From positions 9,321 to 73,320 of the IMG/VR virus record IMGVR_UViG_3300021389_000015: a stretch of DNA of 64,000 nt; one strand, given 5' to 3'. The stretch's first letter is position 1, and every line of letters starts with the position of its first letter. Below the pieces are notes generated by a model. That model did no database searches and was not told where the DNA came from. It saw only the letters and a list, made by a program, of their open reading frames with translations. This document shows, piece after piece, positions 9,091 to 60,324 of this stretch. This stretch comes from a virus. Made by a program: the position numbers and the translations under genes.

Positions 9091-10029
9091 ATGTCTAATG
9101 AATACCTATGGGTTGAAAAGTATAGGCCACAAAAAATTGCCGATACTGTTCTACCTACTAAACTAAAAGAAACCTTTCAAAAAATAATTGATGGTGGTGA
9201 ACTACCAAATATGTTATTTACCGGTACTGCCGGCTTAGGTAAAACTACTGTTGCTCGAGCACTATGTAATGAACTTAACTGTGATTACATTTTGATCAAT
9301 GGTTCTGAAGAAGGCAACATTGATACACTCAGAACTAAAATAAAACAATTTGCTTCCTCGGTATCTCTATCGAGCGACTTTAAAGTTGTCATACTTGATG
9401 AAGCAGATTATTTAAATCCCCAATCAACTCAACCAGCTCTTCGTGGTTTCATTGAAGAGTTTTCTAATAATTGTAGATTTATTCTTACTTGTAATTTCAA
9501 GAATAGAATTATTGAACCATTACATTCAAGATGTGGTGTATATGAATTCAATACTTCTAAAAAAGATCTTGCACCAATAGCTTCTAACTTCATGAAAAGA
9601 TGTCAATCAATTCTTGAAGGTGAAGGTATAAGCTACACACAAATGGCTGTGGCAGATTTGATTATGAAGTTTGCACCAGATTGGCGTAGAGTACTTAATG
9701 AATTGCAAAGATACTCTGTAAATGGAAACATAGATGCTGGTATTATCAATATTGTAAGTGATAAAAACTATGATGATCTTTTCTCTTATTTGAAAAATAA
9801 AGATTTCAAAAAGATGAGATCTTGGGTGGTCAACAATATAGATACAGATGCTAGTGCAATTTTTAGAGCCATGTACGATAAGATGGCTGAAAAGGTTGCT
9901 CCTCAATCTATCCCGCAGTTGGTTTTAATCTTAGGTGATTATCAATATAAAAATGCTTTTGTTGCTGATCACGAACTTAATGTAGTAGCATGTTTAACGG
10001 AGGTAATGTCTGATGTACAGTTCAATTAA
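9091..10029 (+). CDS. gp44: clamp loader large subunit
   Basis: LWVEKYRP, GTAGLGKTT, ILDEAD, SRC. Confidence 0.96.
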   Translation: MSNEYLWVEKYRPQKIADTVLPTKLKETFQKIIDGGELPNMLFTGTAGLGKTTVARALCNELNCDYILINGSEEGNIDTLRTKIKQFASSVSLSSDFKVVILDEADYLNPQSTQPALRGFIEEFSNNCRFILTCNFKNRIIEPLHSRCGVYEFNTSKKDLAPIASNFMKRCQSILEGEGISYTQMAVADLIMKFAPDWRRVLNELQRYSVNGNIDAGIINIVSDKNYDDLFSYLKNKDFKKMRSWVVNNIDTDASAIFRAMYDKMAEKVAPQSIPQLVLILGDYQYKNAFVADHELNVVACLTEVMSDVQFN

Positions 10030-44611: not shown

Positions 44612-44800
44612 ATGGCAAAAGTTAAAAGTTTAGTTATGGATTCAATGGACGAGTTTTACAGTAACGCAGAGCATATCGTTAAGGATGCTGATTCGTTATC
44701 TCAAGCCAAAGAACATGTCGAGATCATGAGAAACAGAGAGTTCAACTGGTTGGACAAAGATCAAATTGCCGATGAAGTAGAGTTATACTGGTATGCTTAA
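44612..44800 (+). CDS. small acidic early protein
   Basis: GGGAG SD; MAKVKSLVMD. Confidence 0.6.
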   Translation: MAKVKSLVMDSMDEFYSNAEHIVKDADSLSQAKEHVEIMRNREFNWLDKDQIADEVELYWYA

Positions 44801-45344
44801 CAATATCAATGCCATGAAAGCATTTATTGCAGGTACTATAGGATTTATAGGACTATCATTCTGTAGTCCACAATCATATGCAGCATCGAAATATGAAGGT
44901 ACCGCACACCAACAGATTGTATGTTTAGCCGATAACATCTATTGGGAAGCACGCAACCAGCCAGTTAAAGGTATGTTTGCGGTTGCATTTGTTGTTGATA
45001 ACCGTGTTAGCGATGATCGTTATCCTAATACTTATTGTGAAGTTATACAACAAGGTCCTACTAGACCATCATGGAAAGACAAAACAAAATACTTTCCGGT
45101 TAAAAACAGATGTCAATTCAGCTGGTTTTGTGATGGTAAAAGCGATGATATTCCTATATATGATAGAGAAGTTTATGATGTTGCACTTCAAATAGCTAGA
45201 ACGATATTCTTTGGTCAATATAAAGATGATATAACTTATGGTGCAACACATTACCATGCCGACTATGTATTTCCATCATGGCGTAAACAAAAAACTAAAA
45301 CTCTAATAATAGCTAATCATATTTTCTATAGATGGGAAAAATAA
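44793..45344 (+). CDS. cell wall hydrolase (SleB/Hydrolase_2)
   Basis: CLADNIYWEAR, NRV, CQFSWFCDGKSD, GATHYHA, HIFY. Confidence 0.9.
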   Translation: MLNNINAMKAFIAGTIGFIGLSFCSPQSYAASKYEGTAHQQIVCLADNIYWEARNQPVKGMFAVAFVVDNRVSDDRYPNTYCEVIQQGPTRPSWKDKTKYFPVKNRCQFSWFCDGKSDDIPIYDREVYDVALQIARTIFFGQYKDDITYGATHYHADYVFPSWRKQKTKTLIIANHIFYRWEK

Positions 45345-45505
45345 TGGAAGAAGAATGGTGGGAACACTACTGTTGTGTGAAAAGAGATATAATGGGATTT
45401 CAGAAGGGTGTACCATGTGATTGGTGCGATGAAGAAGATCCAAATCCATTTTCAATTAAAGTAATTGTAAGAGATAATAAAAGGTCTAAAGACGATGGTG
45501 AGTAA
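45344..45505 (+). CDS. small Cys-containing protein
   Basis: MEEEWWEHYCC...PCDWC; TAATG coupling. Confidence 0.45.
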   Translation: MEEEWWEHYCCVKRDIMGFQKGVPCDWCDEEDPNPFSIKVIVRDNKRSKDDGE

Positions 45506-45869
45506 ATTCGTATATGATAGTTGGAATTCAGTCATGGATCATGATAGAAATCCTTTGAAGAATATACCGCACTTAAATACAAGACATATGATAATGCAAG
45601 TGCTCGCTTGGATGTGGTGTATTATGTTTTCAATGTACTTTAGTAGTATGTGGATATTCGGTATCACGGCTATAGCACATATTTTTATCTTAGCTGCAAT
45701 AACAGTTACAGTCGCTGCATTTGAAACTGCAAAAAGAAAACCACAATTCTTCTTAAAGAACGGTTATCATACATCGAGTAGATCAAGACAAGTAATGTAC
45801 TTATCCGGTAATGGAAGACTACAAAAGATTGAATTAGACCCTAACGACCCTGGAGGCGAGCATGAATAA
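45495..45869 (+). CDS. membrane protein, hypothetical
   Basis: NPLKNIP..RH..MQVLAWMWC plus two hydrophobic helices. Confidence 0.65.
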   Translation: MVSKFVYDSWNSVMDHDRNPLKNIPHLNTRHMIMQVLAWMWCIMFSMYFSSMWIFGITAIAHIFILAAITVTVAAFETAKRKPQFFLKNGYHTSSRSRQVMYLSGNGRLQKIELDPNDPGGEHE

Positions 45870-46209
45870 AACTAAAGAACCGAAAGGTGAATATAAATTT
45901 AATGAAAAAGATTATGTTGAAGAGTTGCTAAGAGTAATTGACTCAACTTATACTGGTCATTATTCAAGACAGCACTTTCAGGCTACAGAATTTATAATTG
46001 ACGGTGGCCACGGTACAGGTTTCTGTATCGGTAACATTATGAAGTATGCTCAAAGATATGGTAAAAAAGGTACGAGTAAAGATGCTCGTAAAGATTTACT
46101 GAAGGTGCTACACTATGCTATCATTCAGTTGTATGTCCATGATATGGATGAATTCGATAAATATGCAAGTGTTGATTCTGATAGAGAATATAGATATAAC
46201 ACCGATTAG
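45862..46209 (+). CDS. DUF3310/SaV-like protein
   Basis: HY...GF..GN..KY..RYGKK...DL.K..HY. Confidence 0.7.
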   Translation: MNKTKEPKGEYKFNEKDYVEELLRVIDSTYTGHYSRQHFQATEFIIDGGHGTGFCIGNIMKYAQRYGKKGTSKDARKDLLKVLHYAIIQLYVHDMDEFDKYASVDSDREYRYNTD

Positions 46210-46211
46210 TG

Positions 46212-46219
46212 TATAAATA
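46212..46219 (+). promoter_or_regulatory. T4-type late promoter
   Basis: Intergenic TATAAATA just upstream of the riboswitch. Confidence 0.75.
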
Positions 46220-46230
46220 GTATTACATTA

Positions 46231-46305
46231 AACGTTCACCCGTAAAGGGCGGAAGTAAGCAATCGCTGAAGGAACGCACTCTAACTATTAACTAGGGAGG
46301 GTGGC
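46231..46305 (+). ncRNA. glutamine riboswitch (glnA motif) with expression platform
   Basis: P1 CGTTC/GAACG, P2 ACCC-GTAAA-GGGC, E-loop GGAAGTA..GAAG flanking P3 AGC-AATC-GCT; CACTCT can pair with AGGGTG over the SD. Confidence 0.8.
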
Positions 46306-46308
46306 AAA

Positions 46309-46410
46309 ATGACTTACAGACCATTTCAATGGAAGATGTTTGTTAAGGCTCGTAAACGTGCTTTAGTTCATAAGATACTGAACTATCGTCTATTATTAAA
46401 AGCAGCTTAA
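46309..46410 (+). CDS. riboswitch-controlled 33-aa basic peptide MTYRPFQWKMFVKARKRALVHKILNYRLLLKAA
   Basis: GGGAGG SD, ATG 46309, TAA 46408-46410. Confidence 0.7.
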   Translation: MTYRPFQWKMFVKARKRALVHKILNYRLLLKAA

Positions 46411-46625
46411 TAAACTTTAGTATTCTTACCGATGCGCTTAGGTACGCATATCGCCGTATATGATAGGAACTTAGGCGCATCTTCTTGTGCGACTCTATTT
46501 GGAACACCAGGTTGATTGTTTAATCTTTCAGCAAAGTACTTACATCGATCAATGTCAGCAAAATACATATCTTGACTCTCTACACGAGAACCTAAATATA
46601 CCATTAATAAAAATGCGTGTATCAT
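46407..46625 (-). CDS. hypothetical protein
   Basis: 72-aa ORF, last gene of the minus-strand late operon. Confidence 0.6.
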   Translation of the reverse strand: MIHAFLLMVYLGSRVESQDMYFADIDRCKYFAERLNNQPGVPNRVAQEDAPKFLSYTAICVPKRIGKNTKVY

Positions 46626-46936
46626 CTTCGTTTCTTCTTAGTTTCTGTTTTAACTATCGAGGCTTGAGCTTCTCTTCTGAGTTTTTCAAGAGCATCTTCT
46701 GATTTATCAAATTTTGGCTTCTCTCTTGTAGAGAGTTGAGCCCAAAACTTATCTTTCACTGGAGCATTATTCTTACTATTATTTAACATTATTGTGATGG
46801 CTTTATAACCATCACCCATGAACACTAACTTATCATTTTTATATAATTTAGACTTAGACGATATCGTCATATCTAGTATCATATTCTCATGTTTGAATAT
46901 CATCTTTACCACATTCGCATTTCTGACACACGTCAT
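46622..46936 (-). CDS. hypothetical protein (true start probably downstream of 46936)
   Basis: ORF in the minus-strand operon. Confidence 0.55.
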   Translation of the reverse strand: MTCVRNANVVKMIFKHENMILDMTISSKSKLYKNDKLVFMGDGYKAITIMLNNSKNNAPVKDKFWAQLSTREKPKFDKSEDALEKLRREAQASIVKTETKKKRR

Positions 46937-47866: not shown

Positions 47867-47874
47867 TATTTATA
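47867..47874 (-). promoter_or_regulatory. T4-type late promoter (minus strand)
   Basis: TATAAATA on the minus strand 22 nt upstream of the ATG at 47844. Confidence 0.75.
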
Positions 47875-47883
47875 AAATAATCC

Positions 47884-47912
47884 TTTACAAACGGCGAATT
47901 CTGTGGTATAAT
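47884..47912 (+). promoter_or_regulatory. early promoter driving the tmRNA
   Basis: CCTTTACA-N17-TATAAT with TGG. Confidence 0.82.
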
Positions 47913-47918
47913 ATATAC

Positions 47919-48180
47919 TATATAACGATGAAACAAAGTGAAAAGTTCACTGGACTCGGGGGCAGTACCCGACAGCTCCACCAAAAATACTATTATCGAG
48001 TATTTCTGATGGGGCTGAAATAGGATCGACAGGTACAATAACGATGTGGAGTTATCCGGATGTAAGCTCGGTTAATGCGAACAATATACTAAATGCAAAC
48101 GATAATTTTGCACCTCAAGAGTTAGCGCAAGCTGCTTAATTCTTATGCGCCCGGTGAGAGCGTGGAAACAGAATCTCACC
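47919..48180 (+). ncRNA. ssrA: two-piece (circularly permuted) tmRNA, alphaproteobacterial type
   Basis: Acceptor piece ends CGGGGGCAGTACCCGACAGCTCCACCA (47983); 27-nt spacer; coding piece starts GGGGCTGAAATAGGATCGAC (48011); G3:U70 pair; tag ANDNFAPQELAQAA* at 48095-48139. Outer ends approximate. Confidence 0.92.
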
Positions 48181-48203
48181 ATTAACACACACAGGAGGAC
48201 AAT

Positions 48204-58920: not shown

Positions 58921-60324
58921 ATGTTAAAATTTAAATCATACATGAGATACTTGGAGGAGCGCATGATACTCGAATTTTCGAAGATGCCGCCAGGTGAATG
59001 GGAAAAAATAAATTCTCAGACTAAAGAAACACGTATAGCTATACTAAGAAAGATCGTTAAAGCTGGTGAAGCTATTCCTTCTATTGCAGGCAAAGAAATA
59101 ATAATAAAGAATACACCAGCAAATAGAGAAGCAATTGATCGTTTAGAAAAAGAAAAGAAAACACAAGAGTTTGAAACAAATGCCGGCACAATTAAATCAA
59201 ATGAAATCGGTAAATCAAATGTATTCGGTGGAGCTACCGGAGGTTCTGGTGGCGGAACGCAGCAAACCGCTTTTGCTGAAATTACACAATGTGTTTACTG
59301 CGCGTATATGGTGAACAATACCCGTGCATCCTTTGAGTCTATCCAGCCATCTGATCTTGAAAAAGCCTATAATGCAATTTCAGTGAAAGGTGCTACATTT
59401 GAACAGGTTATGAGTCTAGATGCATCATGGCATTGGTCGGGTTATTGGACAGCACAAGAATTACTAAAGAAAAATTTAATTAATAAAAATATGTCATTCC
59501 ACCGTGATGATAAAGTTATGAATGACATTTATAAAGTAAAAGATGAAGCTCTTAAAAATTCTCAAATGAATAAGTTAAGTAATGACAAATGGAACCCTGG
59601 TGACATATGGGCAACTACTGATAAATCAATAGCCAGCAAACTACCAAAAGGTTCTATTCAGGAACTAAATAAAACACTTGTTAAACTATTTGAATCAAGA
59701 AAATTAGTAGGTATTTCATTAAAAAAGGTTCAATCTAAAAAAGGAATAAAACTTTCTATAGAAAATAAAGATGAAAGTTTAGATGTTCATAAGTTTAAAG
59801 GCGGACGATTGATGGCAACCTTTGCTAAAAAAGGTTCTGAATTCTGGAGAGGTAAAGCTGCTAACATCGAGTTTGACGGAGGTAAAGCTGCAATACGTAA
59901 TAAATCGCAATTTGCTGCTTTAACATTTGAACTAGAATTAAAAACTGCAAGAGGTGGTGGCGGAGGCTACGCACAAATAACCGATTCAATTAAAAGAAGG
60001 ATCGGTAAAACACTACCTTCAAACGCAGATCTTAAAAGAACAGCATTGGAATTAAACAAACAAGGTGAAAAGTCTCGTAATGCATTACCAATCTACAATA
60101 TGGTTAAGAAGATACATCCTACAGTTAGTAAAGAAGAATTCATGGAAGGCTTAACTACAAAGTTAGCAAATGAAGTGCATAGTAAAATTGCTTCAATACA
60201 TGTGTTGTTTCATTTAGTTGATAATATGAGAAACGGCAAAGCAGATTTGGTTGTAACAGACATGGTGAATTATGCTGGTTCTAAACTAGACATATCATCA
60301 ATTTACGCAAAGGTTTACGAATGA
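58921..60324 (+). CDS. late hypothetical protein, possible PD-(D/E)XK-like nuclease, capsid-targeting-like N-terminus
   Basis: MLKFKSYM..LEE; E....C, DKWNPGDIW, GISLKK. Confidence 0.55.
   Translation: MLKFKSYMRYLEERMILEFSKMPPGEWEKINSQTKETRIAILRKIVKAGEAIPSIAGKEIIIKNTPANREAIDRLEKEKKTQEFETNAGTIKSNEIGKSNVFGGATGGSGGGTQQTAFAEITQCVYCAYMVNNTRASFESIQPSDLEKAYNAISVKGATFEQVMSLDASWHWSGYWTAQELLKKNLINKNMSFHRDDKVMNDIYKVKDEALKNSQMNKLSNDKWNPGDIWATTDKSIASKLPKGSIQELNKTLVKLFESRKLVGISLKKVQSKKGIKLSIENKDESLDVHKFKGGRLMATFAKKGSEFWRGKAANIEFDGGKAAIRNKSQFAALTFELELKTARGGGGGYAQITDSIKRRIGKTLPSNADLKRTALELNKQGEKSRNALPIYNMVKKIHPTVSKEEFMEGLTTKLANEVHSKIASIHVLFHLVDNMRNGKADLVVTDMVNYAGSKLDISSIYAKVYE

Follow-up and report, generated by a model that had tools for sequence, protein, structure and literature searches.

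The stretch of viral DNA considered here, referred to as the window, comprises 64,000 nucleotides (nt) (positions 9,321 to 73,320 of the IMG/VR record IMGVR_UViG_3300021389_000015) and is a fragment of a T4-like marine myophage that encodes, among other core genes, a gp43-type DNA polymerase, helicases and a major head protein. At positions 46,212 to 46,410 it carries a short cassette that is probably a gifB-like, glutamine-gated expression unit for a peptide of 33 amino acids (aa). As proposed, the cassette would be self-contained and consist of a T4-type late promoter box, a type-1 glutamine aptamer, a hairpin that buries the Shine–Dalgarno sequence (SD) and a 33-codon gene for a very basic helical peptide. 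Without glutamine, the hairpin would hide the SD. Once glutamine is bound, the C that follows aptamer helix P1 would, by analogy with gifB, join the long-range G–C pair of the aptamer; the attached helix would open and free the SD, and the peptide would be made late in infection and only at high host glutamine. Much less certain are two further steps, namely a possible action of the peptide in trans on the nitrogen metabolism of the host and a possible short lifetime conferred by its conserved C-terminal Ala-Ala.

The original prediction had proposed a compact glnA-motif fold at this site, with an Infernal search against the Rfam model as its check. That search (cmscan) gave a match to RF01739 that spans the entire model (positions 1-53 of 53), with a score of 56.4 bits (gathering score 35) and E 9.3e-10, and this is the only match in the whole 73,320-base record. 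Helix P1 is formed by CGUUC and GAACG. In the RF01739 alignment, the blocks CGGAAGUA and GAAGGAACGCA are intact in the window, and the junction/E-loop blocks CGGAAGUA and GAAGGAACG are present together with the G and the C of the long-range pair. Judged by this curated model, the RNA of the window is a genuine glutamine aptamer, and binding of the ligand is predicted.

A pattern for the aptamer core was scanned over IMG/VR and matched at least 120 viral contigs. The matches listed, together with the window and the isolate Melnitz, form a phage set of 132 aptamers in 122 loci, on which the counts of phage aptamers and cassettes given below are based. In an alignment of 101 unique cassettes from this set, RNAalifold recovers P1 to P3, and for each base pair of P2 and P3 between 7 and 34 sequences are doubly changed yet paired. 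P1 is invariant in the alignment, and the P1 of phage Mosig is compensated (CGUUU/AAACG). The C after P1 (column 66) is invariant in 101 of 101 cassettes. Tandem aptamers are also encountered: ten strict-pattern pairs occur among the 122 loci, and tandem arrangements are found in L113/L281, in L282 and in ten further IMG/VR loci, including close relatives of the window peptide. The window itself has a single aptamer.

The pairing of CACTCT over the SD, likewise put forward in the original prediction, is borne out by folding and by comparison. In the minimum-free-energy (MFE) fold, the three aptamer helices form and P1 is abutted by the CACUCU:AGGGUG hairpin, whose tail begins with the C after P1. 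The hairpin alone has a free energy of -8.8 kcal/mol; the 32-nt leader reaches -10.1 kcal/mol against -3.15 +/- 1.71 for shuffled sequences (z -4.06; 0 of 100 shuffles as stable). Over 92 unique phage leaders the mean z is -2.55, with 62 below -2. Where at least 60 nt of downstream DNA are available, 112 of 116 terminal aptamers are followed by an SD and an ATG-initiated open reading frame (ORF) of at least 15 aa, and two of the four exceptions visibly use GTG. A tail:SD helix of at least 5 bp can form in 87 of these 112 cassettes, compared with 48% once tails are combined with the SD regions of other loci. The partners co-vary, as CACCU/GGGUG (27 cassettes), CACUU/GAGUG (11), CACUUU/GAAGUG (9), CAUCU/AGAUG and CAAUCU/GGAGAUUG.

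When RNAalifold is run on the MAFFT alignment of the 101 cassettes, it predicts only the aptamer helices and not, unaided, the tail:SD helix, because MAFFT mixes the registers of the SD region. The helix was then scored explicitly in the majority register, by which the window's own subfamily counts as broken. Paired cells then amount to 73.2%, compared with 68.2 +/- 0.9% after shuffling (reached in 0 of 500 shuffles), and doubly changed cells to 42, compared with 23.8 +/- 5.2 (0 of 500), while slid registers pair at 35-60%. Pair 69-104 is split between C-G (31), U-A (30) and U-G (6). Within each of the peptide families A, B and F, double compensatory changes recur, so that one inherited event is an unlikely source of them. 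The SD-sequestering helix thus exists and co-varies in the relatives.

The ORF downstream of the hairpin had been noticed as an unannotated frame, and it encodes the 33-aa sequence exactly as then written. The peptide contains nine Lys and Arg residues and no Asp or Glu, and AlphaFold2 (with a 7-sequence alignment) models a single helix over residues 5-32 with a mean predicted local distance difference test (pLDDT) score of 79.1. When the 106 unique peptides downstream of the listed aptamers were grouped into 14 clusters, the window peptide had six close relatives, with the core MTYRPF.WK.F..AR.RA.VHK(I/L)LN(Y/F)R followed by a variable tail. Over 27 core codons, the ratio of nonsynonymous to synonymous changes (pN/pS) ranges from 0.06 to 0.60 and stays under 1 in all of the 21 pairs compared. 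With nothing but the peptide as the query, a search of IMG/VR, in line with the check originally suggested for related phages, returned 46 viral loci, at least four of them already among the contigs of the aptamer scan. The strict aptamer pattern lies 29-32 nt upstream of the ATG in 46 of 46, and the Rfam model confirms the aptamer in 20 of 20 loci submitted (50.9-61.1 bits). The cassette structure is kept in syntenic (L124, L021, L032), rearranged (L044) and unrelated (L113, L009) contexts. The ORF is under purifying selection and, where found, always stands behind a glutamine aptamer.

An exhaustive HMMER search of 1.84 billion representative proteins gave seven matches, all of 31-56 aa, which indicates a stand-alone micro-protein rather than a fragment of a larger protein. 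The family seems to be restricted to phages. It was not found in 187 genomes from the order of one metagenome-assembled genome (MAG) labelled Pelagibacteraceae (the positive control, the window's own record, gave E 8.6e-24), nor in 201 genomes from the family of another such MAG, where one marginal match fell inside a 349-aa open frame. A tblastn search of 50,697 phage records gave three chance-level matches (E 7, Weissella phages) and hence no isolate there with the family, and the ESM Atlas held no usable match for the peptide.

Upstream of the aptamer, the late-type box is supported by its recurrence. TAAATA occurs no more than 30 nt upstream of 73 of 119 first phage aptamers, compared with 1.7% of background 30-nt windows, and its distance to P1 is 5-13 nt in all but one of those 73. 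Each of the 46 loci with the window peptide family shows, by reading of its sequence, a TAAATA-type box no more than 30 nt ahead of the aptamer. RNA libraries of four studies contain contigs that cover the leader and the ORF, and one of 151 nt is identical over 46279-46429. In the four RNA-library runs contig cover is absent at 46580-46900 and 45800-45910, gaps which in themselves prove nothing.

The end of the peptide, -KAA, had been read as a degron of the ClpXP type. ClpXP recognises C-terminal Ala-Ala. This idea was followed up at the level of conservation, and that part of it stands. The 33 unique peptides of the subfamily carry 27 different tails, which are 4-11 residues long; Ala is the last residue in 20 of these tails and Ala-Ala the last pair in 12, while 7 have no terminal Ala. 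For the other aptamer-linked peptides the corresponding counts are 3 and 1 of 97. Among the window's ORFs of at least 80 aa, 11 of 94 end in Ala and none of the 94 in Ala-Ala. The terminal Ala is encoded by GCT (11), GCC (15) or GCA (2) and the penultimate one by GCA (11), GCT (5) or GCG (1), a synonymous variation that points to selection on the amino acid. The 4-nt overlap with the stop codon of the convergent ORF constrains just the third base of the last Ala codon. Conservation of Ala-Ala is real but indirect support for the degron idea.

Several points weigh against the reading of the cassette as a glutamine-gated expression unit. Glutamine binding, the direction of switching and translation of the peptide are all things that we infer. 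The platform is not universal, given that a tail:SD helix of 5 bp or more is missing from 25 of the 112 cassettes and that none is formed in family E (8 of 8 leaders) or in 12 of 23 leaders of the YRG group. The covariation statistics are inflated by related sequences, and in a secondary-structure model the blocking of one to three tail nt lifts SD accessibility from about 0.22 to 0.33-0.38, which is a small gain. With 12 occurrences in the window, where 12.65 are expected, the octamer TATAAATA is not enriched, so that the late promoter called at 46212 in the original prediction rests on comparative data, that is, on the conserved position of the box among relatives. The RNA-library contigs carry no 5' ends and, given possible DNA carry-over, are a weak hint of expression. 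For gifB itself, the mode of action 'remains unclear' according to Klahn 2018 (PMC6212724). Outside the subfamily, the peptide families behind the aptamer rarely have an Ala end. As for function, neither Pfam (at E up to 1) nor PHROGs holds a family for the window peptide, and an hhalign comparison of 35 phage peptides with 12 cyanobacterial IF7-like peptides gave a probability of 0.1%. In a test for a one-sided helix, the resultant of the invariant residues was 0.15, a value equalled or bettered by 12,779 of 20,000 random sets; the invariant residues surround the helix, which is therefore not a one-sided amphipathic one.

Beyond phages, the pattern for the aptamer core was found in at least 120 genome contigs (loci L127-L246). 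Among the cyanobacterial matches listed, the aptamer is followed by a CGCCUC tail and then by DUF4278/IF17-like YRG peptides or by IF7-like peptides. The latter (...QARLLM...NRQQSML.RAA...), which have no YRG repeats, stand behind the aptamer in at least 12 cyanobacterial loci (L141, L160, L162, L170, L173, L174, L184, L200, L208, L218, L223 and L246). The compact layout of tail, SD and micro-ORF is common to phages and cyanobacterial gif genes. In the listed single-cell genomes and MAGs of SAR11 type, the aptamers are mostly in tandem, with a linker of about 90 nt, and precede 428-aa proteins that are Amt-like by sequence reading, glutamine synthetase (GS; Pfam-confirmed) and a 469-aa protein. 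The occurrence ahead of GlnA and Amt-like genes suggests that the probable host lineages use the aptamer for nitrogen genes. In the listed MAGs of SAR86 and other gammaproteobacteria, it stands before a 198-aa protein (porin-like by eye), GS-like proteins and small '...FFPYYL' peptides. Of 151 genomes of one order among these lineages, 78 carry RF01739, and aptamers of this type are common outside the cyanobacteria.

The ORFs behind the phage aptamers belong to at least eight unrelated peptide families. Some phage cassettes encode DUF4278-like YRG peptides, as in L071 (26.5 bits against a cut-off of 25.3). The 'NGNGTSGY' family (64-70 aa), frequent behind phage aptamers, also has chromosomal members, which were found in 148 of the 201 genomes searched of one SAR11-type family and in 0 of 187 genomes of another order. 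Its chromosomal copies (L196/L297, L298) lie in an ordinary cellular neighbourhood, with an aptamer upstream in two of the four loci fetched. The peptide of the IMG/VR locus L036 combines an N-terminal YRG motif with a C-terminal helix that resembles the 32-aa 'WQLVLIKQQKEKEQ' family, and its DUF4278 match is weak (E 0.074). IF17 has a similar two-part build.

By the company that the peptide keeps, a modulator of nitrogen assimilation is our most economical guess for its role, and GS is the leading single candidate target, though a tentative one. In its specific form, namely that the peptide is a phage analogue of IF7/IF17 which blocks host GS when glutamine is plentiful, the proposal is possible but on balance unlikely. 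The regulatory logic would be the same as that of gifB, true DUF4278/IF17-like peptides occur in phage cassettes and IF7-like ones behind cyanobacterial aptamers, the window peptide is small, basic and rich in Arg, and genomes of the host lineage have glnA under the same aptamer. On the other hand, the window peptide has no sequence or profile similarity to the IF7-like peptides, and it has no match to DUF4278 (PF14105)/IF17 in a run in which the controls L150 and L071 scored 50.1 and 26.5 bits (cut-off 25.3). The family was not found in the 388 SAR11-type genomes searched. A complex prediction with two SAR11-type GlnA subunits and the peptide (score 0.00, mark 0.32) is evidence neither way.

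Given the architecture of the cassette, the switch would quite probably be of the ON type, because the tested cyanobacterial cases switch on and share the C after P1. According to Klahn 2018 (PMC6212724), the leader of gifB acts as an activator that depends on glutamine; reporter expression under this leader and under that of the Downstream-peptide motif goes up with nitrogen or glutamine, and C68 and its neighbours are postulated to hold the ribosome-binding site (RBS) in a helix that glutamine melts. In an OFF switch, glutamine would stabilise P1 and the hairpin stacked on it, and the peptide would be made only at low glutamine. The SD hairpin abuts P1 in the MFE fold and could indeed stack, and the SAR11-type aptamers precede amt-like and glnA genes, for which repression by glutamine would be expected, as the same paper states for metagenomic glnA cases. 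Yet the only small-ORF members tested, gifB and the Downstream-peptide leader of Prochlorococcus MED4, rise with nitrogen or glutamine. Moreover, the first nucleotide of the tail is the conserved C of the long-range pair of the bound state, so that ligand binding and the SD helix would compete for it. Since a blocked tail makes the SD only modestly more accessible in the model, the OFF switch keeps a small share of the probability and is rather unlikely.

The features of the cassette and of its surroundings are collected in Table 1.

Table 1. Features of the glutamine-aptamer cassette and neighbouring genes (positions in the window; ORF coordinates of the peptide include the stop codon).
Feature	Position	Strand	Basis or remark
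TATAAATA box, T4-type late-promoter-like	46212..46219	+	sequence; 13 nt upstream of P1
Glutamine riboswitch aptamer, glnA motif, type 1	46231..46280	+	Rfam RF01739, cmscan
Aptamer helix P1	46233-46237/46272-46276	+	
Aptamer helix P2	46240-46243/46249-46252	+	
Aptamer helix P3	46258-46260/46265-46267	+	
SD-sequestering hairpin	46277..46303	+	tail CACUCU 46277-46282 : AGGGUG 46298-46303; inner stem CUA/UAG
SD GGGAGGGUG	46295-46303	+	
ORF, 33-aa basic peptide ending -KAA	46309..46410	+	ATG at 46309
Four convergent ORFs, 72, 104, 109 and 159 aa	46407-47844	-	between cassette and tmRNA
Transfer-messenger RNA (tmRNA), alpha-type permuted (two-piece)	47880-48183	+	Rfam, 133.9 bits; 1.47 kb downstream of cassette
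SleB-type cell-wall hydrolase (Hydrolase_2, endolysin PHROG)	44793-45344	+	upstream of cassette
124-aa ORF, membrane-spanning by appearance of translation	45495-45869	+	no Pfam/PHROG match
DUF3310 protein	45862-46209	+	just upstream of cassette

The source record is an IMG/VR contig of 73,320 bases with a completeness of about 41%. By its major capsid protein, the nearest isolate is Phage C48C1 (66%), whose record gives no host, followed by Melnitz (Methylophilales, OM43; 61.7%), Mosig (Pelagibacter, SAR11; 59.8%) and HTVC008M (Pelagibacter, SAR11; 59.1%), with cyanophages close behind at about 57%. The ORF at 58921-60324 has 28% identity to cyanophages, which is uninformative for host placement. 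No psbA (PF00124) was found in the 73-kb record, itself only 41% complete.

Downstream of the cassette, the four minus-strand ORFs have no Pfam or PHROG family and are conserved at 55-86% identity in L124, L021, L032 and L044. They are headed by a TATAAATA box of their own at 47867-47874 (minus strand), 22 nt upstream, and the last of them overlaps the stop of the peptide ORF by 4 nt. The tmRNA beyond them encodes a tag that ends ...AQAA by reading of the sequence; ARAGORN found no tRNA or tmRNA in the window, despite the permuted tmRNA recognised by Rfam. The same tmRNA lies behind the cassette in 8 of the 20 related loci (L250, L254, L255, L259, L262, L268, L277 and L279) and in 7 of the 12 related loci that have at least 2.3 kb of downstream DNA. 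In L254 and L255 it begins right after the stop codon of the peptide.

This neighbourhood bears on a further proposal for the peptide, in which the peptide, through its Ala-Ala end, would compete as a decoy substrate for the protease that degrades tmRNA-tagged proteins, or modulate that protease, and so tie phage trans-translation to the supply of amino acids. The C-terminal Ala or Ala-Ala is under protein-level selection in the window's subfamily only, the tag of the window tmRNA likewise ends in Ala-Ala, and the linkage of cassette and tmRNA survives rearrangements. Against this stand the peptide adjacent to the Melnitz tmRNA, which ends in -LKG, and the 7 of 27 tails without terminal Ala; the linkage may also simply reflect shared ancestry of a variable region. 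Such a role is quite unlikely.

The suggestion that the peptide is a lysis-timing or membrane-active factor is still less likely and may be called improbable. It draws on the SleB-type hydrolase and the seemingly membrane-spanning 124-aa ORF that lie 0.4-1.5 kb upstream, and on the speculation in Buchholz 2022 (PMC9004378) that glutamine may time lysis. That neighbourhood, however, is not conserved (L113, L009 and Melnitz), and the peptide has no hydrophobic segment, only a modest hydrophobic moment, and conserved residues that are not gathered on one face.

In the accessible text of Buchholz 2022 (PMC9004378), glutamine riboswitches are reported in Melnitz, Mosig, a Prochlorococcus phage and pelagimyophage contigs, the switch is assigned to the tmRNA and to the timing of genome expression or lysis, and the downstream ORF or peptide is not mentioned in that part of the paper. 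A glutamine riboswitch in phages of non-cyanobacterial hosts is accordingly not new. The same text states that these phages have a riboswitch or a tmRNA 'but rarely both', which fails for the window's subfamily, given the tmRNA behind the cassette in 8 of 20 related loci. In Zaragoza-Solas et al. 2020, riboswitches were not found in these phages, and two cyanophage papers name the glutamine riboswitch among cyanophage non-coding RNAs without detail. Weinberg et al. 2010 give the distribution of the glnA motif as 'cyanobacteria, marine', including tandem cases and nitrogen genes. Within the full-text literature searched, part of which was accessible only in excerpt, no paper ties phage glutamine aptamers to a small peptide; the supplements of Klahn and Buchholz may list downstream ORFs.

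The isolates were compared directly. In Melnitz (MZ577097.1, 45984-46593; L005, L126), the annotated tmRNA (45984-46436) overruns the aptamer (46398-46446). The aptamer is situated downstream of the tmRNA, and behind it come CACUUAAC..GGGGAGAGUG..AUG and a plus-strand ORF of 32 codons. This 32-aa ORF is unannotated in the record, where a minus-strand coding sequence of 34 aa is annotated over the same stretch. The Mosig aptamer (50 bits) has an ATAAATA box ahead of it and, behind it, CUCUUU opposite AAAGGAG and then the 51-aa hypothetical protein Mosig_00116. HTVC008M and Phage C48C1 gave no match to RF01739.

The switch does not control the nearby tmRNA. Regulation of the phage tmRNA (ssrA), as proposed for Melnitz in Buchholz 2022 (PMC9004378), is the least probable of the explanations and very improbable indeed, for although cassette and alpha-type permuted tmRNA are repeatedly neighbours (in the window, in the 8 related loci, adjacently in L254/L255, and in Melnitz), the four minus-strand ORFs intervene in the window, whose tmRNA thus cannot be the regulated gene, the Melnitz aptamer lies downstream of the tmRNA and before the 32-codon ORF while aptamers act 3', a tmRNA is missing from 5 of the 12 related loci whose downstream DNA extends over at least 2.3 kb, and the Mosig copy is followed by a 51-aa ORF.

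Within the literature searched, as far as its texts were accessible, the identification of the regulated gene, the comparative support for the SD-sequestering platform and the phage-restricted Ala-Ala peptide family are new. The published target is thereby corrected, in that the aptamer of Melnitz-like phages and pelagimyophages fronts a tiny ORF and not the tmRNA, and about 100 natural variants support the tail:SD helix postulated by Klahn et al. for gifB. A further outcome is that abundant ocean phages are seen to encode small peptides, most of them unannotated, that are probably controlled by a nutrient. Should they act on GS or on proteolysis, they would form a new class of auxiliary regulators that affect nitrogen flow in infected, very abundant marine bacteria. 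A more far-reaching reading, for which the chances are small, is that late-promoter glutamine-gated micro-genes are a widespread and so far unrecognised phage strategy and that the MTYRPF..AA family is a phage-only counterpart, independently evolved, of the cyanobacterial GS-inactivating factors for heterotrophic hosts, its lifetime set by an ssrA-like Ala-Ala tail and hence by the protease that serves the phage's adjacent tmRNA. If that were true, the phage would read the nitrogen status of its host and, late in infection, adjust both the assimilation of nitrogen and the recycling of amino acids.

Among known systems, the riboswitches of Melnitz, Mosig and the pelagimyophages (PMC9004378) resemble that of the window in the phage group, the aptamer family and the neighbouring two-piece tmRNA. 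They differ in the assignment of the target, which is the tmRNA in Buchholz 2022, whereas here the regulated gene is the small ORF, also in Melnitz and Mosig. The gifB (IF17) switch of Synechocystis sp. PCC 6803 (PMC6212724) likewise has RF01739 in the leader of a small ORF, and the C after P1 and its neighbours can pair with the RBS. There, however, the promoter is NtcA-dependent, in place of the phage late-type box of the window, the tail is CGCCUC in cyanobacterial loci instead of CACUCU, and the product is a DUF4278/IF17 protein to which the window peptide, encoded by a T4-like marine phage, is unrelated.

The Downstream-peptide motif (type 2, RF01704), with the 33-codon Yfr6 ORF of Prochlorococcus, also places a glutamine aptamer before a very short ORF (17-100 aa), whose coding nature is supported by synonymous changes in Weinberg 2010 and Klahn 2018 (PMC6212724). 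It differs from the window system in its aptamer architecture, in its DUF4278/IF17-like peptides and in its restriction to marine picocyanobacteria. The cyanobacterial IF7 (gifA) is similarly a small basic peptide regulator, with no homology detectable by the hhalign comparison. Finally, the ssrA/tmRNA tag degron shares with the window peptide, with 12 of the 27 subfamily tails and with the window tmRNA tag an Ala-Ala end, but the agreement is confined to the last one or two residues.

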